Part shown: piece by piece, positions 52,501 through 60,223 of the stretch | How positions within the stretch are numbered: the first letter of the stretch is position 1 | Layout of the letters: the number at the start of each line of letters is the position of its first letter | Assembly: GCA_963771075.1 (NCBI GenBank) | Contig: CAVYSE010000018.1 | Location: forward strand, 108,551-172,550 | Direction: 5' to 3' | DNA length: 64,000 nt | Origin: a candidate division FCPU426 bacterium | GTDB lineage: Bacteria > Oederibacteriota > Muellerivitia > Muellerivitales > Muellerivitaceae | The notes under the pieces: model-generated | Seen by the model: the letters and a program-made list of their open reading frames with translations, nothing else | The model's database searches: none | Told to the model about the DNA's origin: nothing | Program-made: the position numbers and the translations under genes

Positions 52501-54110
52501 CGGCCACGGCAACCTTTACCCCAACGCCGACTAATACGTCCACCTATACCGCGACATCTACCGCTTCTTTTACGGCTACCTTCACGCCAACCTTCACCTT
52601 CACGGTCACTCCCACACCCACCTTTACCATTCAGCCGCCTTCTTCCATCGTCGTCCTGCCCCAAACCGCCCCCGTAACGGCAGGGGGATATGCCTCGGTG
52701 ACCTTGGAGGTGTTAAATGGAGCAGGACAACCGGCTACCCTTGAAACGGCGATGACATTGAGTCTGAATTCAAACTCGACCGGAGAAAATGCCATTTGGT
52801 TGTCTCCATCGTCGAGTGGCACGACAATCAACTCCGTTAATTTTACGTCTGGGAGCGTCGCTCAAACCTTGGTTTATTACAGGGATGATCTAGCCGGGAA
52901 TTGGACTCTCACCGCATCTTCCTTCAACCTTGCTTATGGGACCATTAATGTGATTCCGGGCGCATTTATGAGCTTGCAAGTATTGCTGCCGGGTCAAACC
53001 GCCGATCCTGGTCATCCAACCGCGGATCCAATTGGAATACTGGGTAATCCTTCATCCGCTGTCGCAGGTTCCCCGGTTCAAGTTACGCTGAACGCGGTGG
53101 ACGCCTATTTCAACCGGGTTTTATCTATTGACGATCCATTAACCTTGACCCTCACCGATCCCGCGGCCCCGGCTGGCGGGACCGTGAATCTTTCGGGTGG
53201 AACGGCAATAAAACCTGTAACTTTTTATTCCCCTGGCAACCAAGCTGTCACTGCCACGGATACGGTTACTGGCCCCAAGACGGGTTCCAGCGGTTTATTA
53301 ACGATCCTGGGGGGGACAGCCAGCACCCTATTGGACATCGTTCATAATTCGCCAATCCTTTCCGGCGAAGGGTTGGGTGCGGTGGGTGTGACTTTCATGA
53401 ATTTCAAATTATCCGTTCAAAGCGGACAAAACCCGATCCGATTGGATAGCCTCACCCTGCATGCCAGGGATTCCTACGGCAATGATGTGCCCTTAGACAC
53501 CGCCTTTCAAAACCTTAAACTTATTTCCGGCCCACAAATTTTCATTTTGCCTCTGTCCTCAGTCAATACCGGGATCGTGAGTCTCGCTCCTTTGTCCGCT
53601 GGCATTACTTTTGACGTGGCAGCCGCCTCTCCCATCACCTTGAACCTGACGGGGGATATATCCTCCACCGCGACCGCCAGAAACATATCCCTTTCGGTGG
53701 ATGCTTCCGCCTCAGTCGTGGCGCATGATCCCGTTTCAGCAGTTTCGGCGGCGGTTGTGGCGACGGGAGATCCCACTGGGTTCCCTATGGTCTCAGGCTT
53801 GCTTGTATTGGAGCCTTCGGATGTATCTAAAACTTATGGAAATTATCCTAATCCCTTCCGTCCGGGGATCGAAAACACGACTATTGAATTTTATTTACCC
53901 GCGCCCTCCTCCGTTTCGTTGATTTTGTACGATGTGTTAGGAAACAAGGTTTTAACCCTTTTGAAAGGCCAAAACCTACCTACGGGCCTACAGCGCTTAG
54001 TTTGGGACGGCCGTAACGGTTCAGGTGCCCCGGTGATTAGCGGTATTTATTACGCCCAACTTACGGTAAATGGGACAAGCTACCTAGTGAAAGTGGCGGT
54101 GGTCCGATGA
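46587..54110 (+). CDS. Giant (2507 aa) secreted adhesin-like protein. Contains an N-terminal lectin/LamG-like domain, 4 near-identical Ig-like modules, 2 modules of a second type, further Ig-like regions and a FlgD-Ig/T9SS-like C-terminal domain.
   Basis: Signal peptide (LALIFVFIVTPSVFA). The N-terminal domain carries YVRMSKAGTNFDAYFSNDGNTWTRF. Repeated modules PVLNIVRVTPPVD...GATIMVAAATPT are separated by TPT linkers. Two modules read VGLALSWNNLPSPQNYL...GKTHTISPVTATPT. The C-terminal domain reads NYPNPFRPG..VSLILYDVLGNKVLTLL..LVWDGRNGSGAPVISGIYYAQL..VKVAVVR. Confidence 0.9.
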   Translation: MMCNKWKFKSALALIFVFIVTPSVFADCLVSDQFNNEILPAWTALDIGTASLGVTSVGSVLTMTSNDPGMPGGGGTTSDSFYYLYQSSTGDPEVTLQIDSMPAATGGRLGIMFRNGIPPGDVFAYVFAATTGAGTGSFNTMYRNPANTGNQTLGTAAGNWTTATLPVYVRMSKAGTNFDAYFSNDGNTWTRFANIGVAGFTASPYLVGIALASANNVAPGDTGSVEDFSVISGYCTQTNTPTFSSTTTPTQTPTLTPTITNTVTLTPTVTLTPTESYTITLTPTITDTVTLTPTITNTETLTPTITPTFTATPTVTMTYTVTQTPPVLNIVRVTPPVDATVIPGSQGVSVVQVKVSNNDGEGVNLNYVVLQATGTGDSLPVNVTAVNLYKGSTLLASSTYSGTSPNEYVTLGGFPLDGIGAGLSQNYMITYDFAGGAGLGTYGMNVVGAGGVGQSTGQLVQLTGVPFAGATIMVAAATPTPTFTATSSFTSTSTWTGTSTPTITLTPTVTLTPTPSYTITLTPTITNTVTLTPTVTLTPTESYTITLTPTITNTVTLTPTVTLTPTESYTITLTPTITDTVTLTPTITNTETLTPTITPTFTATPTVTMTYTVTQTPPVLNIVRVTPPVDATVIPGSQGVSVVQVKVSNNDGEGVNLNYVVLQATGTGESLPVNVTAVNLYKGSTLLASSTYSGTSPNEYVTLGGFPLDGIGAGLSQNYMITYDFAGGAGLGTYGMNVVGAGGVGQSTGQLVQLTGVPFAGATIMVAAATPTPTFTATSSFTSTSTWTGTSTPTITLTPTVTLTPTPSYTITLTPTITNTVTLTPTVTLTPTESYTITLTPTITNTVTLTPTVTLTPTESYTITLTPTITDTVTLTPTITNTETLTPTITPTFTATPTVTMTYTVTQTPPVLNIVRVTPPVDTTVIPGSQGVSVVQVKVSNNDGEGVNLSYVILQATGTGESLPVNVTAVNLYKGSTLLASSTYSGTSPNEYVTLGGFPLDGIGAGLSQNYMITYDFAGGAGLGTYGMNVVGAGGVGQSTGQLVQLTGVPFAGATIMVAAATPTPTFTATSSFTSTSTWTGTSTPTITLTPTVTLTPTPSYTITLTPTITNTVTLTPTVTLTPTESYTITLTPTITNTVTLTPTVTLTPTESYTITLTPTITDTVTLTPTITNTETLTPTITPTFTATPTVTMTYTVTQTPPVLNIVRVTPPVDTTVIPGSQGVSVVQVKVSNNDGEGVNLSYVILQATGTGESLPVNVTAVNLYKGSTLLASSTYSGTSPNEYVTLGGFPLDGIGAGLSQNYMITYDFAGGAGLGTYGMNVVGAGGVGQSTGQLVQLTGVPFAGATIMVAAATPTPTFTATSSFTSTSTWTGTPTPTITLTPTITNTVTLTPTITNTVTLTPTITNTVTLTPTVTLTPTITNTVTLTPTITNTVTLTPTITNTVTNTPTFTPTVTSTWTSTTTPTVTPTVGLALSWNNLPSPQNYLFNQINVSSLQFVLTSTAQENVLVKQLVFTGGGSVGWTGDVVAGSVRLYQDNSPGSNGLYNAADTLLLGSQTFDSTGAVTFTSLSGLTSLASGAPQTFLLVFDLNMGGLASKTFDNGLALGGITANGQTTGQGAILTGANITGKTHTISPVTATPTSTNTVTLTPTTTNTVTLTPTITNTVTLTPTVTLTPTITNTVTLTPTITNTVTLTPTITNTVTLTPTITNTVTLTPTITNTVTNTPTFTPTVTSTWTSTTTPTVTPTVGLALSWNNLPSPQNYLYDQVNVSSLQFVLTSTAQENVLVKQLVFTGGGSVGWTGDVVAGSVRLYQDSSLNGLYSVGADTLLLGGQSFNGSGSVTFQNPNGVTAPLVSGMPQTFLLVFDLNMGGLASKTFDNGLALGGITANGQTTGQGAILAGADITGKTHTISPVTATPTATTTFTTTATSTDTITPTPSVTQTHTSTFTFTETPTPTLTLTFTSTFTPTETATATFTPTPTNTSTYTATSTASFTATFTPTFTFTVTPTPTFTIQPPSSIVVLPQTAPVTAGGYASVTLEVLNGAGQPATLETAMTLSLNSNSTGENAIWLSPSSSGTTINSVNFTSGSVAQTLVYYRDDLAGNWTLTASSFNLAYGTINVIPGAFMSLQVLLPGQTADPGHPTADPIGILGNPSSAVAGSPVQVTLNAVDAYFNRVLSIDDPLTLTLTDPAAPAGGTVNLSGGTAIKPVTFYSPGNQAVTATDTVTGPKTGSSGLLTILGGTASTLLDIVHNSPILSGEGLGAVGVTFMNFKLSVQSGQNPIRLDSLTLHARDSYGNDVPLDTAFQNLKLISGPQIFILPLSSVNTGIVSLAPLSAGITFDVAAASPITLNLTGDISSTATARNISLSVDASASVVAHDPVSAVSAAVVATGDPTGFPMVSGLLVLEPSDVSKTYGNYPNPFRPGIENTTIEFYLPAPSSVSLILYDVLGNKVLTLLKGQNLPTGLQRLVWDGRNGSGAPVISGIYYAQLTVNGTSYLVKVAVVR
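47345..50705. repeat. Near-identical 876-bp (292-aa) in-frame tandem repeat, about 3.8 copies.
   Basis: caccgactgagagctacacgatcacgcttacg occurs at 47401 and 48277 (offset 876). Antisense ORF sets at 47223/48177/49053/49929 and 47909/48785/49661/50537 repeat at 876 bp. Only a handful of substitutions between copies are visible (for example GDS vs GES, NLNYVV vs NLSYVI). Confidence 0.92.
50710..52345. repeat. 834-bp (278-aa) in-frame tandem repeat, 2 copies, more diverged than the 876-bp array.
   Basis: atcaccaataccgtgaccttaaccccgacaatcaccaacacgg occurs at ~50849 and ~51683, and cacggggaaaacgcatacgatttcaccggtaacagccacgccgac at 51467 and 52301 (offset 834 in both cases). Confidence 0.88.
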
Positions 54111-55759
54111 AGACACTGTTCCTTTACATTTTGACCGGCTTTTACACCCTATTCTTCCTAGGGACGGGGGTCCCCATGGTTTGGGGCCAAAGCGCCGAAA
54201 CCGGAGGAATGGTCGACCCGTTCGAATTGGGTGCGTCGGCCAGGGTCCTGGCCATGGGTGATGCTGGTGTGGCCTTGGCCGGGGATGGTGGAGCGGCCCT
54301 TCTCAACCCGGCATTGCTGGCGACCGTCAACCAGAATGATCTCCTGATGTTCCATGCGCCTCTTTTTATCGACACGCTTTATGACAGCGTCGGTTTTGTC
54401 CAACCTCTTACGGGATCCTCCGGCTTTGCCCTGAGTCTTTCGCGTTTGGGGATCGATAATATTTTGCAAACCCAAAACAATATCGTGGCGGTATCCACTT
54501 TCTCGACCCAAGAATGGGAGGCGACCCTAAGCCTGGGGGCGGAGGTTGTACCCGGCTTGGGTATGGGAATCCAGATGAAAGGAATTCAAGAGCAAATCTC
54601 CCTTTACCAAGGGGAGGGCGTAGGGATGGACGCCGGGTTGATTTATCGGTTCGCCCAATCCGAATCGGACTATTCCAAAATCGGACTTCCAAACCTCGTT
54701 CTCGGTATCGCGGCCGTGAATCTTATTTCCCCTCAAATCACCCTTTATCAGACCGGCAGCCAGCCCTCTGAAATCATCAAACCTTCGGTGGGTTTTCTCT
54801 ATGATATCTCCCCTCACGGCGACCGGTTATGGCTTGCGATGGAGGGAGAGATGACCCAGGGAGGAAGCAATCTTGTAAAGGCGGGGGCCGAGTATACTTT
54901 TCAGGGCAATTTTTCCCTCAGGGCTGGGTTTGACGGGGTGAGTCCCACGGCTGGAGGAGGCGTGAGCTTGTCGGGTTTTGAGCTGGATTATGCCTACAAC
55001 CAAAGGGACTTGGGAACCCTTAACCGGTTGTCCCTATCCTACCGCTTCGGGGAATATATCGATCCGGTACAAGCCCAAAAAAGGGAGATGTTAAACGAAA
55101 GGCTGAGCCTGCTTAAATGGGTTGCCCAAAGCTACGAAAAGGACGAGGATTACGACGCCGCGATCAAAGCCTGGAACAATGTTTTAAAAGAATACCCCGA
55201 CGACGCCGAATCGTCCAAGTCCATCCAAAGTTTGAAGGACCGCCGCCATCAACAGGTGGAAGCCCTTATGAAACAAGCCCGTCCCGCCATGCAAAAAGGT
55301 GATTATGTGAGAGGAATACCCATTTTAGGAAAGGTGCTGGCTTTGGAGCCTGGCAATACCGAAGCCCGCAACATGCTTAAACACGTCGACCAGGGAAGGC
55401 AGTTGGAAACCGCTTATTTGGCCGGGGTCGAGGCTTACCGCCACGAAAATTACCGGGAAGCCATGGATTACCTGGAGGGCATTTACGACACCAATCCGGA
55501 TTACCGGGACGTGGCATTGCTCTACCGTGACGTCCAAAGCCGTATTCAGCCCCTGGAATCCCTTCCCAAGGACCTTTCCGATCTCTATGCCAAGGGTGTG
55601 GACGCTTACATGAAGGGCCAATATTCCGGGGCCATTTCCCTATGGCAGCAGGTCCTGGCCAAAGATCCTCGAAACCGGCTAGTGGCCAGGAACTTAGAAG
55701 AAGCCCGGGGCCACTTGGCCGATCCCACCCCCACACCCCAAGTGAAGAGTGCCCCTTGA
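54107..55759 (+). CDS. PorV/PorQ/UPF0164-like outer-membrane beta-barrel fused to a C-terminal TPR domain.
   Basis: The ATG overlaps the giant gene's stop (ATGA). Signal peptide, DPFELGASARVLAMGDAGVALAGDGGAALLNPALLA and the barrel end FELDYAYNQRDLGTLNRLSLSYRF. TPR-like units follow (YEKDEDYDAAIKAWNNVLKEYPDD, GDYVRGIPILGKVLALEPGN, ENYREAMDYLEGIYDTNPDY, GQYSGAISLWQQVLAKDPRN). Confidence 0.7.
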   Translation: MKTLFLYILTGFYTLFFLGTGVPMVWGQSAETGGMVDPFELGASARVLAMGDAGVALAGDGGAALLNPALLATVNQNDLLMFHAPLFIDTLYDSVGFVQPLTGSSGFALSLSRLGIDNILQTQNNIVAVSTFSTQEWEATLSLGAEVVPGLGMGIQMKGIQEQISLYQGEGVGMDAGLIYRFAQSESDYSKIGLPNLVLGIAAVNLISPQITLYQTGSQPSEIIKPSVGFLYDISPHGDRLWLAMEGEMTQGGSNLVKAGAEYTFQGNFSLRAGFDGVSPTAGGGVSLSGFELDYAYNQRDLGTLNRLSLSYRFGEYIDPVQAQKREMLNERLSLLKWVAQSYEKDEDYDAAIKAWNNVLKEYPDDAESSKSIQSLKDRRHQQVEALMKQARPAMQKGDYVRGIPILGKVLALEPGNTEARNMLKHVDQGRQLETAYLAGVEAYRHENYREAMDYLEGIYDTNPDYRDVALLYRDVQSRIQPLESLPKDLSDLYAKGVDAYMKGQYSGAISLWQQVLAKDPRNRLVARNLEEARGHLADPTPTPQVKSAP

Positions 55760-58170
55760 ATTTAAAACAGATCTACCTACGCATTGCGGCTCGTATGACG
55801 CCGGATTCCAAAAGGCGGCATTTTAAATTGGAGGTCCCCGCACAGGAATTGGAACTCCTGACAATCAAAGATTTTGTACAGCGGGTTTGCGATTCCGCGG
55901 GATGCTCCCAAAAGGAAACCTCTGGATTTAAGCTGGCCATCGATGAGGCTTGTACCAATATCATCCGACATGCTTACCAGGGAAAAAGCGACGGGAAAAT
56001 CAAGGTGGAGATGGGTATCGGCCTGGCCGACCTGAAAACAACCATCACGGATTATGGCAAGCCCTTCGATTTTAATTCGGTCCAAGATCCCGACCTCAAC
56101 CATTACGTGGAGATTGGTAAAAAAGGGGGGCTGGGGATTTGGCTGATCCGCAAAGTTATGTCCCGGGTTTCCTATAAGGCTTATCCCGACCGCAATGAAT
56201 TGGTGATGTACCGGCGTTTATCCAACGCTCCGCCCCAACAGCTGGGATTGAAAAAGGGTGCGGTCTCGGTTTCAGTTAAGTTCACGATTGGGGCGGTGGC
56301 CTTAGTGGCGATTCTTTTCGTGACCTTTTATTTCTCCCTGAGTCACCGGCGGGAGGAGGAAGGCTTCCGGCACCAGAGGGAATACGTGAATTTGATCCTT
56401 GGGTCCTTGGCTTCCGAGTCCGGATCAGGGGTTTCCCGCAAGGACAACCTTGGGATGGAAAACCTCATACGCCAGGTGAAGGCCCAGGACGCGGGCAGGT
56501 CGCTTGATTACATCTTTATCGTCGGTTTGGACGGCGTTTTCCTGGCCCATACCGACCTTCGACAAATTCTCAGGCCCTATGCGCGTCCGCCTGGGGAAAA
56601 ATTCAATCCCAAGGGGGGGATCCAGGTCTTCCAACTTCAAACTACGGAAGGAAAAGTGAGTGATTCCATCGCACCCATTTATTACAAGGGACAGGTGGTG
56701 GGAGAGGTGCATGTGGGGGTGGAGGGAAAGACCATTCGAGAGGCCACCCGGCAGATCGAAAACGAATTGCGAAACCAGCTTTTAGCCGCTTCCTTGTTCA
56801 TGATGGTACTACTCTGGCTTCTGTCCCGAATTATCATCCAGCCTTTCCGGAAGATTTTGATGGGGGTCAACGCCGTTTCCTCTGGAAATCTGGACGCGAA
56901 AATTGAGATCGACACCCAGGATGAGTTTGGACAATTGGCGGGCATTTTCAATGAAATGACCAATAAGCTCCAGGAATCCCAAAAGGGGATGATGGAGCAA
57001 GAACGCATGCAAAAGGAAATGCAGGTCGCTCAGCAGATCCAACACACCCTTTTGCCGGCCGATTTCCCCCAGATTGAGGGGTATGAGATCGGCGCTACCT
57101 ACCGGTCCGCGAAGGAGGTGGGGGGGGATTACTACGATTTCTTCTGGGTGGACCCGACTACCCTGGGTATCGTAGTGGCCGACGTTTCGGGCAAAGGAGT
57201 GCCTGGTTCCATGGTGATGACCATGATCCGGACGGCTATGCGCCTGGAGGCCCGCGGCAACAAGAGCGCCTCGGACACCCTCTCCAAGGTCAACCGGCAT
57301 GTGACCTCGGATATGAAACGGGGGATGTTCGTCACAATGTTTTACATCATCCTGGATTCCCGGACGCGGGCGATCAATTTCGCCAGCGCGGGCCATAACC
57401 CCATGATTCTTTACCGGGGTAAAACCAAGGAAGTCTACTTTCTCAAACCGAAGGGATTCCCGGTGGGCATAGACCTTCCGGAGGAGGAGATGTTCACCCG
57501 CAACCTAGCCCTGCAGAAAATTCAACTGGAAAAAAACGATATGCTGGTCATCTATACGGACGGGATTACCGAGGCGATGAATCCTGAAAAAGCCCAATTC
57601 GGGGAAACCCGGTTGGTGCAAGTCATCAAGGAAAATTCCCACCTGACACCCCAGGAATTTGTGGAGCAGTTAAATTTGGCCATCGCCCAGTTCACCCGGG
57701 GGGCGGAACAAAACGATGACATCACGGTGGTGGCGATCAAGGAGAAAATGAAGGCCGAGTCGGTGGAGTTCAAGTTCAGAAAGAACCTTTTGGACCTCGT
57801 AGAGAAGAAGGGGCTGTCCGTGATCGAGGCATGCCGCCAAATGAACGTCTCGACCAAAGCGTATTATCGATTCAAAAAGATGGTGACGGACAAAGGCCGG
57901 GCCAGCTTGAAGCCCACCCGGTCCCAGCGTAACAGCGATATCCGCGAATTGACGATACCCCAAAAGGAAGCTTTGATGACCTTGTTGTGCAAGAACCCCG
58001 AATTCGGACCCCAAAGGCTCTCACAGGCTTTGAAGAAGCTGACCCCCCCTGTTCGAGTGGAGTCGAGTCTCATCTACGATCACTTGAAGCGGAAGAGTTT
58101 AAGTACGGTCAATCAAAGGAAAGCCTTCGCTGCCATCTCGGTTGACAGCGAGAAAGCCGGAAGCCCATAA
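55756..58170 (+). CDS. Multidomain signalling protein: RsbW/SpoIIAB-like HATPase kinase domain, TM, extracytoplasmic region, TM, HAMP, PP2C (SpoIIE/RsbU-type) phosphatase and a C-terminal transposase-type HTH region.
   Basis: The TTG at 55756 overlaps the upstream stop (TTGA). An alternative ATG is at 55795. Kinase domain: KLAIDEACTNIIRHAY...GKKGGLGIWLIRKVMSRV. HAMP: IIQPFRKILMGVNAVSSGNLDAKIEIDTQDEFGQLAGIFNEMTNKL (~56834-56980). PP2C: AQQIQHTLLP..GGDYYDF..VADVSGKGVPGSMVM..YTDGITEA..DDITVVAIK (~57022-57741). Tail: LSVIEACRQMNVSTKAYYRFKK..PTRSQRNS..IPQKEALMTLLCKNPEFGPQRLSQALKK..SSLIYDHLKRKSL (~57780-58170). Confidence 0.8.
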   Translation: MNLKQIYLRIAARMTPDSKRRHFKLEVPAQELELLTIKDFVQRVCDSAGCSQKETSGFKLAIDEACTNIIRHAYQGKSDGKIKVEMGIGLADLKTTITDYGKPFDFNSVQDPDLNHYVEIGKKGGLGIWLIRKVMSRVSYKAYPDRNELVMYRRLSNAPPQQLGLKKGAVSVSVKFTIGAVALVAILFVTFYFSLSHRREEEGFRHQREYVNLILGSLASESGSGVSRKDNLGMENLIRQVKAQDAGRSLDYIFIVGLDGVFLAHTDLRQILRPYARPPGEKFNPKGGIQVFQLQTTEGKVSDSIAPIYYKGQVVGEVHVGVEGKTIREATRQIENELRNQLLAASLFMMVLLWLLSRIIIQPFRKILMGVNAVSSGNLDAKIEIDTQDEFGQLAGIFNEMTNKLQESQKGMMEQERMQKEMQVAQQIQHTLLPADFPQIEGYEIGATYRSAKEVGGDYYDFFWVDPTTLGIVVADVSGKGVPGSMVMTMIRTAMRLEARGNKSASDTLSKVNRHVTSDMKRGMFVTMFYIILDSRTRAINFASAGHNPMILYRGKTKEVYFLKPKGFPVGIDLPEEEMFTRNLALQKIQLEKNDMLVIYTDGITEAMNPEKAQFGETRLVQVIKENSHLTPQEFVEQLNLAIAQFTRGAEQNDDITVVAIKEKMKAESVEFKFRKNLLDLVEKKGLSVIEACRQMNVSTKAYYRFKKMVTDKGRASLKPTRSQRNSDIRELTIPQKEALMTLLCKNPEFGPQRLSQALKKLTPPVRVESSLIYDHLKRKSLSTVNQRKAFAAISVDSEKAGSP

Positions 58171-58209: not shown

Positions 58210-58572
58210 ATGGATAACATCACGGTCAGCGTTGCCGACCATTCCAATCATAAAGATATTGTTGTTTTAACGGTCAAGGGTTTCATTGACACCACGACCG
58301 CACCGGAATTCGAGAAAAAGTTCCTGGGGGTATTGAGCGATAAGAAATATAAGTTGATTGTCGACTTGAAAGATGTCAATTACATCAGTTCCGCTGGGTG
58401 GGGAATCTTCATCAGCGAAATCAAGCGCATCCGGTCCCAAAAAGGGGACCTCATTTTGGTGGGAATGAACCCCGAAGTAAGCGAGGTTTTTGAGCTTTTG
58501 GAGTTCAATTCCATCCTGAAGTCCTTTCCCAGCGTGGATCTGGGGCTCAAAAAAGGCTTCGATAAAGCGTAA
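58210..58572 (+). CDS. STAS-domain anti-sigma-factor antagonist (RsbV/SpoIIAA-like).
   Basis: VVLTVKGFIDTTTAPEFEKKF...LIVDLKDVNYISSAGWGIFISEI...GDLILVGMNPEVSEVFELLEFNSIL. GGAGG lies upstream of the start. Confidence 0.82.
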   Translation: MDNITVSVADHSNHKDIVVLTVKGFIDTTTAPEFEKKFLGVLSDKKYKLIVDLKDVNYISSAGWGIFISEIKRIRSQKGDLILVGMNPEVSEVFELLEFNSILKSFPSVDLGLKKGFDKA

Positions 58573-58653
58573 AGGAGCGTTCGGATGGGACGCGCTCTCC
58601 TCAAACGGTGCGTGTCTTAATCTCAGGATTTGAAGATCCGAGAAACGGAAACT

Positions 58654-59385
58654 ATGGAAAGCAATACCCTCAACTCACTTCTTGATATCAATGGCAAACA
58701 TTTCACGGTTGAAACCAGCTTGGCCCAGGGCAAGAACCGGGTTCTTTCCGTGGCTCAATTAGATGGAAGAATTCTTTCCCAGCGTGAATTTGAGTTACCC
58801 GAGGGTCTGGATGAGGATGGCAAGAAGCGGTTCAACCAGGAAACCCATAAAAACCGGCTTGTAGAGTTGGAGTCCATTTTTCGACTGAACCGGAAGATCG
58901 ATGAAAAGCCGACGCCTGACGCCTGCTGGAAAATCGGCGTAATCCTGATGTCGAATGGCTTTTATGAGGATGCCCGCCAGCGTTTTTTGAAGGCCATGGA
59001 AATGGATCCCCAGCATCTGCAGGCCCTCAAATGTTACGGTATCAACCTGACCCTGCTGGATGATTACGAAGCCGCTTTGGCTATTCTGAACCATGCACGG
59101 GAATTGGGCCCCTCCTTTGCCGACATTTATTACCACCTGGGAAATGTTCATCTTTACCGAAGGGAACTGGACGAGGCTGTCCAATCCTATCTCCAAGCTC
59201 TCCAAATCAATCCCCGCTACGCGGATGCCAGGCTTCGTTTGGCCACCGCTTGCGTTGGCTATTTAACTATCGGCGATTTGAGTGTCAGTGACGGCGGCAA
59301 AACGGCCGAGTTGGCGGAAAGAGCCAAGGCGGAGGCCGAAACGGCGGCGACATTAAACCCTAAACTTCGGAACGGTCCTTCATGA
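58654..59385 (+). CDS. TPR-repeat protein.
   Basis: TPR units WKIGVILMSNGFYEDARQRFLKAMEMDPQH, YYHLGNVHLYRRELDEAVQSYLQALQINPRY. An alternative TTG start is at 58630. Confidence 0.65.
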   Translation: MESNTLNSLLDINGKHFTVETSLAQGKNRVLSVAQLDGRILSQREFELPEGLDEDGKKRFNQETHKNRLVELESIFRLNRKIDEKPTPDACWKIGVILMSNGFYEDARQRFLKAMEMDPQHLQALKCYGINLTLLDDYEAALAILNHARELGPSFADIYYHLGNVHLYRRELDEAVQSYLQALQINPRYADARLRLATACVGYLTIGDLSVSDGGKTAELAERAKAEAETAATLNPKLRNGPS

Positions 59386-59795
59386 TGGCGACCGACTATC
59401 TGAAGAGCCGCAGGTTCTCAAACGCCTTCCAGACCTTTTTGGAAGTGCGGCCGCGGTTCGTTCCCCGGATCGGGGATGAAATTATTTTTTTCTTCACCTT
59501 GACGCTTCTCTATGGCAGCGAGGGGATTGACCTGCAAATGACCGAGCAATACATCGAGAAGTTATCCAAAGTAATCGAGGAATATCCCCATTACGCGGAC
59601 CTGCACCACCATTTGGGCGTTGCCTACCTCATTAAGTGCCGTTTCGACGTCAGCCGATCGCTCAAGGAATTTAAAAAGGCCTTAACCATCAACCCGCAAT
59701 TCCAAAAAGCCCTGAACAACGCCGAGGATACTGAGGAATTGCATCGCCGGGTCTTGGTCTCGTTGAAAAAGGCCATTATTTCAAAAGGGAATTAA
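59382..59795 (+). CDS. Small TPR-like protein.
   Basis: ATGA overlap with the preceding gene. HHHLGVAYLIKCRFDVSRSLKEFKKALTINPQF. Confidence 0.55.
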   Translation: MMATDYLKSRRFSNAFQTFLEVRPRFVPRIGDEIIFFFTLTLLYGSEGIDLQMTEQYIEKLSKVIEEYPHYADLHHHLGVAYLIKCRFDVSRSLKEFKKALTINPQFQKALNNAEDTEELHRRVLVSLKKAIISKGN

Positions 59796-59839: not shown

Positions 59840-60223
59840 TTAAGCCTCAGGCACGGGCGTCAAAGAGTAGTTTTTCTCCAAAAACCCGACATGATCCGCC
59901 GAGGGGTTATCGAAATTGACACCGTAAGCGTACCGGCCCATGGTTTTCATGGGGTTTTTCCGGGCCCAAACGACTTTTCCCGGGAAGGTCATGGCGTGGC
60001 TTCCATCCAAGGAATCCAGTTCGAGACTCAGGTTCGTTTTCTCGACCATGGTCTTGTTGGAGTAGATTTGGGCTCCGGTCGAGCTGATGTTGACTAGGTG
60101 GGCCCGAAAGACATCGGTCTGGTTTGAGTTTAATAGACGGCCTTTGATGGATTTCACCATCACGACCCTATTGTTATTGGTCCGTTTGAACGTTTCGGGA
60201 TTAGGCCGGGGAATCTTTTTCAT
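59840..60223 (-). CDS. PilZ-like domain protein (putative c-di-GMP receptor).
   Basis: The internal ATG at 60223 has GGAG upstream. The N-x-S-x-x-G motif (VNISSTGAQI) is present and the beta-barrel-like remainder ends in YAYGVNF. The N-terminal arginine motif is RTNNNR (Rx4R rather than RxxxR). Confidence 0.55.
   Translation of the reverse strand: MKKIPRPNPETFKRTNNNRVVMVKSIKGRLLNSNQTDVFRAHLVNISSTGAQIYSNKTMVEKTNLSLELDSLDGSHAMTFPGKVVWARKNPMKTMGRYAYGVNFDNPSADHVGFLEKNYSLTPVPEA

Follow-up and report, generated by a model that had tools for sequence, protein, structure and literature searches.

A predicted membrane-bound kinase/phosphatase switch protein with a C-terminal tail of apparent IS481 transposase origin in a candidate division FCPU426 bacterium

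Domain architecture of the switch protein

The window analyzed here, a stretch of 64,000 nucleotides from the genome of a candidate division FCPU426 bacterium (contig CAVYSE010000018.1 of assembly GCA_963771075.1, positions 108,551 to 172,550), contains a gene for a large membrane protein, to which we will refer as the switch protein. From the N to the C terminus, it comprises an RsbW-type serine kinase, a first transmembrane (TM) helix, a periplasmic sCache sensor, a second TM helix, a HAMP domain, a PP2C serine phosphatase, and a basic tail of 125 amino acids (aa) (Table 1). Partner switching is usually taught as the interplay of a phosphatase, a kinase acting as anti-sigma factor, a STAS antagonist, and a sigma factor. 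The family described here has no linked sigma factor, and both enzymes are joined to a periplasmic sensor.

The domain inventory given in an original prediction, which was made from the DNA letters and a list of open reading frames (ORFs), held up in Pfam scans, where HATPase_c_2, sCache_3_2, HAMP, and SpoIIE/PP2C all scored above threshold. Two TM helices around about 150 aa had also been predicted, in agreement with a hydropathy scan that yielded exactly two hydrophobic segments, one on either side of the Cache domain, with about 145 aa between them. Since a cytoplasmic location is required for the kinase, HAMP, and PP2C domains, we infer that both termini are located inside and the Cache domain outside of the cell.

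Conservation was assessed in an alignment of 22 homologues (34 to 81% identity). Invariant residues include E64 and N68 of the kinase N-box (DEACTNIIRHAY), D99, G101, G124, G125, and G127 of the G-box, and the aspartates D458, D461, D476, D602, D654, and D655 in the PP2C motifs GGDYYDF, ADVSGKG, YTDG, and NDD(I)T. Based on these invariant kinase boxes and PP2C aspartates, both the kinase and the phosphatase look catalytically competent. The kinase domain additionally matched the RsbW structure 6m36_A (E = 2e-14). In the linker behind the HAMP domain, Q409, Q415, E416, E421, A425, I428, and Q429 are conserved, and the stretch from about residue 409 to 434 is probably helical and would lead into the phosphatase.

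The longest frame at the locus encodes 842 aa and starts with an ATG (55642) that lies within the upstream gene (118-nt overlap). We accept the TTG at 55756 and the 804-aa product, because this start overlaps the stop of the upstream gene by 4 nt (TTGA) and because four close homologues show the same 4-nt overlap, with a GTG or ATG at the matching aligned position. From this start, the frame is open throughout and its composition shows no break. Gene callers could report the 842-aa version (with 55642 to 55755 in addition), and the original prediction used its numbering when it assigned the tail to residues 715 to 842.

Table 1. Domains of the switch protein and genes next to it (positions in the window; residues of the 804-aa product; HTH, helix-turn-helix; AF2, AlphaFold2)
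Feature	Position	Strand	Residues	Details
Switch gene, whole	55756..58170	+		804 aa; membrane kinase/phosphatase with HTH tail; TTG start
RsbW/SpoIIAB-type serine kinase, cytoplasmic	55852..56211	+	33-152	Pfam HATPase_c_2 (PF13581), 87 bits vs cut-off 27.4, E 1e-24
TM helix 1	56281..56343	+	~176-196	Kyte-Doolittle peak 2.26
sCache_3_2 periplasmic single-Cache sensor	56389..56757	+	212-334	Pfam, 44.9 bits vs cut-off 28.4, E 1.5e-11
TM helix 2	56776..56838	+	~341-361	Kyte-Doolittle peak 2.30
HAMP	56818..56976	+	355-407	Pfam, E 5e-13
PP2C (SpoIIE-type) serine phosphatase	57154..57741	+	467-662	PF07228, 166.8 bits vs cut-off 25, E 7e-49
First HTH lobe, three helices	57754..57894	+	~667-713	AF2 tail helices 4-20, 26-33, 37-50
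IS481-type bipartite HTH tail, no DDE domain	57778..58122	+	675-789	NF033577 match
Second HTH lobe and C-terminal helix	57955..58158	+	~734-779, helix to ~801	AF2 tail helices 71-83, 89-97, 107-116, 122-138
Barrel-plus-TPR gene	54107..55759	+		Stop overlaps switch-gene start
Single-domain STAS protein, probable substrate	58210..58572	+		120 aa; Pfam STAS E 3e-21; 39 nt downstream of switch gene
Downstream TPR protein	58630..59795	+		Two overlapping ORFs, 58630-59385 (251 aa) and 59382-59795 (137 aa); ATGA overlap
PilZ-domain gene	59840..60223	-		Converges on operon end; same place in four close relatives

The tail matches the N-terminal head of IS481 transposases

The tail had been likened to the N-terminal region of IS481/IS3-type transposases without the DDE catalytic domain. 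This likeness was substantiated by profile and pairwise comparisons. Positions 2 to 114 (of 284) of the NCBIfam IS481 model (NF033577) align to the tail with E = 1e-13 and cover both HTH lobes and the linker between them. Models for IS630, IS3, and ISNCY scored far lower on the tail than IS481, and the Pfam models HTH_32, HTH_29, and HTH_Tnp_1 remained below threshold (E = 1e-4 to 1e-3). Pfam and NCBIfam scans of the switch protein found no rve/DDE catalytic core; the ORF ends 15 residues past the IS481 match and the next gene encodes a STAS protein, so that no DDE domain follows. For the whole protein, the IS481 model reached 51 bits against a membership cut-off of 224. Lacking a DDE core, scoring below the cut-off, and being present in a single copy, the switch protein is placed outside the IS481 family.

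A profile of 32 tails of the family retrieved multi-copy ORFs of 340 to 376 aa from other genomes of the phylum. A live element was found in genome G052, which belongs to the same GTDB family as the window (locus L096, 614 to 1669, minus strand). Its 351-aa product scored 248 bits against the cut-off of 224 and, given this score together with rve hits, represents a true IS481 transposase. This genome carries three copies of it, two of full length and one in a shorter frame. Its N terminus matched the tail better than any other transposase did, and BLASTP aligned the two with E = 2e-11 (35% identity over 86 aa). The alignment runs from the first HTH lobe through the linker into the beginning of the second lobe and contains the common motif ACRxxxxSxxxYYxxxK. 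Both lobes, the linker, and the recognition-helix motif of IS481 transposases thus recur in the tail. In contrast to the transposases, the tail is fused behind a phosphatase, occurs as a single copy, keeps the same gene neighborhood in relatives, and is conserved across the phylum. Judged from these alignments, the tail is derived from the N-terminal head of an IS481 transposase. From eukaryotes, there are well-documented cases in which the DNA-binding head of a transposase was recruited and its cutting domain left behind, and the family provides a clean example of such a domestication.

An AF2 model computed from the tail alignment (predicted local distance difference test score, pLDDT, 87.7) showed two three-helix lobes connected by a flexible linker, followed by a C-terminal helix. 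The recognition helix of the first lobe carries the motif ACRxMNVSxxxYYRxKK, in which A29, C30, S36, Y40, and Y41 (tail numbering) vary little or not at all. Against four relatives, the proportion of nonsynonymous differences in the tail (pN = 0.13 to 0.33) was low versus that of synonymous differences (pS = 0.73 to 0.90, with synonymous sites saturated), pointing to purifying selection on both lobes. The first lobe is the better-kept half of the tail and is 88 to 90% identical to the nearest relatives, level with the kinase domain.

Could the tail be a functionless relic, retained just as a structured, basic cap or spacer at the C terminus? The tail-less paralogous modules seem complete, only the second lobe is still detectable in families f15 to f23 of the phylum, and the Pfam scores of the tail are below threshold. 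A relic would, however, have to account for selection on both lobes over distances at which synonymous sites are saturated, for polar recognition-helix residues that are invariant across phyla at 30 to 40% overall identity, and for a confidently predicted fold. We consider this explanation very unlikely.

The fusion is intact and widespread

The boundary between PP2C and tail is where the join of a chimeric contig would be expected, and the Pfam call for the tail was below threshold. Such a join at 57740 to 57800 had been raised as a concern in the original prediction. Contigs from four independent soil/bog metagenome runs, belonging to three studies, proved identical to the window across the junction region (57634 to 57936), with no stop, frameshift, or other difference. 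Further, kinase, PP2C, and tail occur in one chain in 161 of the database proteins collected. About 50 of the 99 genomes of the phylum contain a near-full-length match, and among the matches listed there is never more than one per genome. Named relatives belong to Latescibacterota, Eisenbacteria, Calditrichota, KSB1, Ignavibacteria, Krumholzibacteria, and Firestonebacteria. In its own genome, the tail matches only itself, and no IS481 element above the family cut-off was found there.

An assembly chimera, a stop codon lost in this genome only, or a recent insertion sequence (IS) remnant was rejected in view of the junction-crossing contigs, the 161 proteins of like build, the lack of a paralogue of the tail or of an IS481 copy at cut-off, and the continuous frame and composition. 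The probability of such an artefact is practically negligible. The proposed transposase origin of the tail was upheld, in the form of an old acquisition kept under selection.

Variation of the C terminus was observed in close relatives. An orthologue from the same genus (L098; G047:C11:46000-50500) has an additional match to the second lobe at C11 48826 to 49053, about 100 nt past the first tail and in the same long open frame. The two closest database homologues, P0003 and P0004, have about 65 additional, lysine-rich aa at their C terminus, which are missing from the protein of the window.

A conserved operon with a putative STAS substrate

The barrel-plus-TPR gene lies directly upstream of the switch gene in all nine loci examined from distant phyla (including Latescibacterota, Eisenbacteria, Calditrichota, KSB1, and Ignavibacteria) and also precedes the tail-less paralogues. 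In four close relatives, the gene order is giant surface-protein gene, barrel-TPR gene, switch gene, STAS gene, TPR gene, convergent PilZ gene, and gltX. The family is located in surface-adhesin/outer-membrane-barrel operons, which are found in many uncultured FCB-group phyla and their neighbors.

The STAS protein encoded next to the switch protein aligns to the structures of SpoIIAA and RsbV, with ISSAG placed on their DSSG/DSTG phospho-serine motif. A STAS domain is encoded downstream of, or fused to, the switch protein in eight of the nine distant-phylum loci; in the ninth (L008), the contig ends inside the gene. A search with Sigma70_r2 detected no sigma-70 family gene on the contig of the window and 18 in the genome. 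Genome-wide, we counted two PP2C genes, two clear RsbW-type kinases, and 14 STAS domains.

Split, fused, tailed, and extended forms

A search for orthologs with and without the tail had been suggested as a check in the original prediction. Both kinds of module are present in the phylum, the tailed form in the roughly 50 of 99 genomes mentioned above and tail-less, paralogous forms at loci L086 and L087 to L089. The last three show a split form with a barrel-TPR gene, a kinase gene (~160 aa), a Cache-HAMP-PP2C gene (~496 aa), and a STAS gene. The product of L086 is fused and tail-less (683 aa); it ends with PP2C and its gene follows a barrel-TPR gene. At the other end of the series, all-in-one relatives carry three STAS domains beyond the tail (L002, L004, P0132, and P0151), and in L008 and P0262 the tail is followed by C-terminal TPR repeats. 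The genomes with the split form (G082, G085, and G094 for L087, L088, and L089, respectively) also carry a fused, tail-bearing gene, and in L089 the STAS gene is followed by another small kinase gene.

The domain order of the switch protein mirrors the gene order of the split operon, in which kinase, sensor-phosphatase, and STAS protein follow each other. This comparison indicates that the switch protein originated when a kinase gene and its neighboring sensor-phosphatase gene were fused and that the tail was gained later, in one subfamily. All stages (split, fused, tailed, and all-in-one) still exist, and present-day genomes therefore reveal the order in which the protein was assembled. The fusions of STAS and TPR domains in relatives also tie the corresponding downstream genes of the window to the switch protein.

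Comparison with known systems

The original prediction did not recognize the arrangement of domains, but this novelty does not hold for the core of the protein. SypE of Vibrio fischeri has an N-terminal RsbW-like serine kinase, a central sensor domain, and a C-terminal PP2C phosphatase and acts in both directions on the STAS protein SypA (PMC3610818; also PMC4517449 and PMC10120452). Kinase, sensor, and PP2C follow in the same order in one chain, as they do across the split operon, and a small single-domain STAS protein is encoded nearby in both cases. The likeness, which is one of architecture, extends to the absence of a sigma factor and to the location in a cell-surface locus (polysaccharide for SypE, adhesin and barrel here). 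The two differ in their sensor, which in SypE is a cytoplasmic REC receiver fed by a phosphorelay and here is a TM-sCache-TM-HAMP unit, with which the protein would sense its signal directly; domain scans of the switch protein gave no match to REC. SypE also has no HTH tail, and phylum and gene neighborhood differ.

Rv1364c of Mycobacterium tuberculosis combines PAS, PP2C, kinase, and STAS domains in one chain (PMC12143880). It shares with the switch protein the character of a multidomain partner-switching fusion, and the longest relatives of the window protein likewise add STAS domains, but its domain order is different, and it is cytoplasmic and without an HTH. Control of PP2C phosphatases by HAMP and other sensor domains via coiled-coil linkers has been described (PMC12143880). 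The RsbU/RsbW/RsbV-sigmaB and SpoIIE/SpoIIAB/SpoIIAA-sigmaF systems of Bacillus use the same three families (PP2C, HATPase_c_2, and STAS). There, three separate proteins are used, the kinase is the anti-sigma factor, and a sigma gene is part of the operon, whereas here the enzymes are fused and no sigma gene is linked.

A precedent for a DNA-linked output of a kinase/STAS pair is offered by CapK/CapS (Chambers et al., EMBO J 2026, PMC13373217). In this pair, an anti-sigma-like kinase and a STAS-like substrate are reported to regulate transcription directly on DNA, with no sigma factor involved. There, the substrate CapS is itself the DNA-binding repressor, unlike the STAS protein of the window, which has no DNA-binding domain. 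The signal is single-stranded DNA and the targets are immune operons; the abstract describes neither a phosphatase domain nor a membrane sensor.

Our literature search found no description of the present architecture or of its transposase-derived tail. The fusion itself thus has a precedent in SypE, and it is for the tailed, Cache-sensing form that no published description was found.

Proposed mode of action and the role of the tail

We propose, with a probability of about 0.55, that the switch protein is a SypE-like, bifunctional regulator of the inner membrane, in which a predicted STAS phospho-switch is combined with an IS481-derived tail that binds DNA. The Cache domain would sense an envelope or surface signal in the periplasm. 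Movement of the two TM helices could then be passed to PP2C via HAMP and the linker, and to the kinase via the first TM helix. The resulting balance of kinase and phosphatase would set the phosphorylation of the conserved serine in the downstream 120-aa STAS protein. This protein, rather than a sigma factor, may carry the output to the adhesin/outer-membrane-barrel/TPR module. Most likely, the tail would still bind DNA and bring the membrane protein into another, direct contact with a site on the chromosome, e.g., for autoregulation of the operon. Transposase N-terminal fragments can act as repressors.

DNA binding is the likely role of the tail as far as can be predicted from its sequence, and we rank it first, docking second, and an output sequestered by the kinase third. 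The net charge of the tail is +17 here, and 117 of 117 tails of the family are positive (+4 to +22, median +12). The recognition-helix pattern of a serine, two tyrosines, and subsequent basic residues is common to the tail and the true transposase.

Several observations weigh against DNA binding as proposed or are neutral to it. A Foldseek search of the tail model against the Protein Data Bank (PDB) returned no match at E <= 0.001. The top hits were the bipartite DNA-binding domains of TnsB, Pax5/6, SETMAR, and IstA, which at E = 0.1 to 3 are suggestive and not significant; the flexible linker between the lobes probably spoils a global superposition. No convincing conserved palindrome that could serve as operator was revealed when three intergenic regions were scanned for inverted repeats and the sequence preceding the adhesin gene was aligned for three relatives, although these sequences are too few for a conclusion. 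The tail-less paralogous modules, together with the three genomes that hold both kinds, indicate that the tail is an accessory and dispensable for the core switch. Outside the family, the nearest relatives of the tail contain tandem copies of the bipartite HTH module, fused to a GT2 glycosyltransferase in 18 of 48 cases and accompanied by an rve domain in 1 of 48, which fits a protein-binding tail as well as a DNA-binding one. Finally, in other clades (Eisenbacteria, Calditrichota, and families f7 and f8 of the phylum) the STAS protein has 230 to 290 aa and its C terminus matches the second lobe of the tail; matching lobes on enzyme and substrate hint at docking between the two.

These last points bear on an alternative in which the core switch works as proposed and the tail is a docking or dimerization module for proteins that does not bind DNA. 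Such a tail could keep a binding partner (the STAS protein, the TPR protein, or another copy of the enzyme) near the catalytic domains. Its position between PP2C and the three STAS domains of the all-in-one relatives would suit this role, the lobe-bearing STAS partners suggest mutual recognition, and both the glycosyltransferase-fused relatives and the Foldseek result are compatible with it. In the window and four close relatives, however, the STAS protein (119 to 120 aa) has no HTH lobe and the tail is nonetheless conserved, which rules out lobe-to-lobe docking of the STAS protein in this clade. The first lobe (88 to 90% identity) and not the second is the better conserved half, and the uniformly positive charge of the tails is as expected for nucleic-acid binding. 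We regard a docking tail as possible but rather unlikely.

Kinases of the RsbW/SpoIIAB type act as anti-sigma factors and grip those regions of a sigma factor that contain an HTH. By analogy, the switch might be self-contained: the RsbW-like domain would grip the HTH tail of the same or a neighboring subunit, unphosphorylated STAS protein, produced by the PP2C domain, would displace it, and the freed tail would bind DNA. No sigma gene is linked to the locus. In the 80 best loci from named genomes, an N-terminal kinase on a membrane protein is always accompanied by the tail, and the nearest tail-less relatives also lack the kinase. The CapK/CapS pair is reported to act on DNA without a sigma factor. 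Strict co-occurrence of kinase and tail is not taken as strong evidence, since it is broken by L086, whose fused and tail-less product from the same phylum demonstrates that kinase and tail are separable. A Pfam match to sigma region 4 was obtained in the tail of one homologue only (P0090). We consider gripping of the tail by the kinase decidedly unlikely. A broader chain is unlikely as well, if a little less so. In this sigma-free switch, the output would be the exapted transposase head, with the RsbW-like domain holding or releasing the membrane-tethered HTH depending on the phosphorylation of the STAS protein; an envelope signal received by the Cache domain would thus be converted directly into binding at a site on the chromosome that controls the adhesin/barrel operon.

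If the tail binds DNA as we favor, the family would represent a new class of one-component regulators that are tethered to the membrane and based on a phospho-switch. If it does not, an HTH would have been turned into a protein-docking device. Either outcome would help to explain the control of giant surface proteins in these poorly known bacteria. The window adds to this a series of split, fused, and tailed forms surviving in a single phylum, a pairwise alignment that connects the tail directly to a live IS481 element, and a clade with the HTH on the enzyme only and not on its STAS partner.

Additional observations

A profile of the tail searched against PDB sequences gave a weak match of the second lobe to the RED subdomain of Sleeping Beauty (5unk, E = 0.011). 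A match of the same profile to an annexin (E = 0.0018) was judged probably spurious. Among the non-family relatives of the tail, P0165, P0198, and 16 others consist of two tandem bipartite HTH modules at the N terminus followed by a family-2 glycosyltransferase, and one of them is annotated as Candidatus Aminicenantes. To our knowledge, this architecture has not been described.

An extended -10-like promoter sequence (TGTATAAT) is common to the window and its closest relative (L082). The TPR gene downstream of the STAS gene, which is present as two ORFs in the window, is a single gene of 379 to 380 aa covering both halves in four close relatives; the two ORFs may stem from a frameshift or an error of assembly, or the gene is truly split here. 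The genome additionally contains a second, classical split module on contig C3 (~157739 to 159523), in which a PP2C gene is accompanied by an RsbW-like kinase of 141 aa and by a 501-aa frame with two tandem STAS domains.

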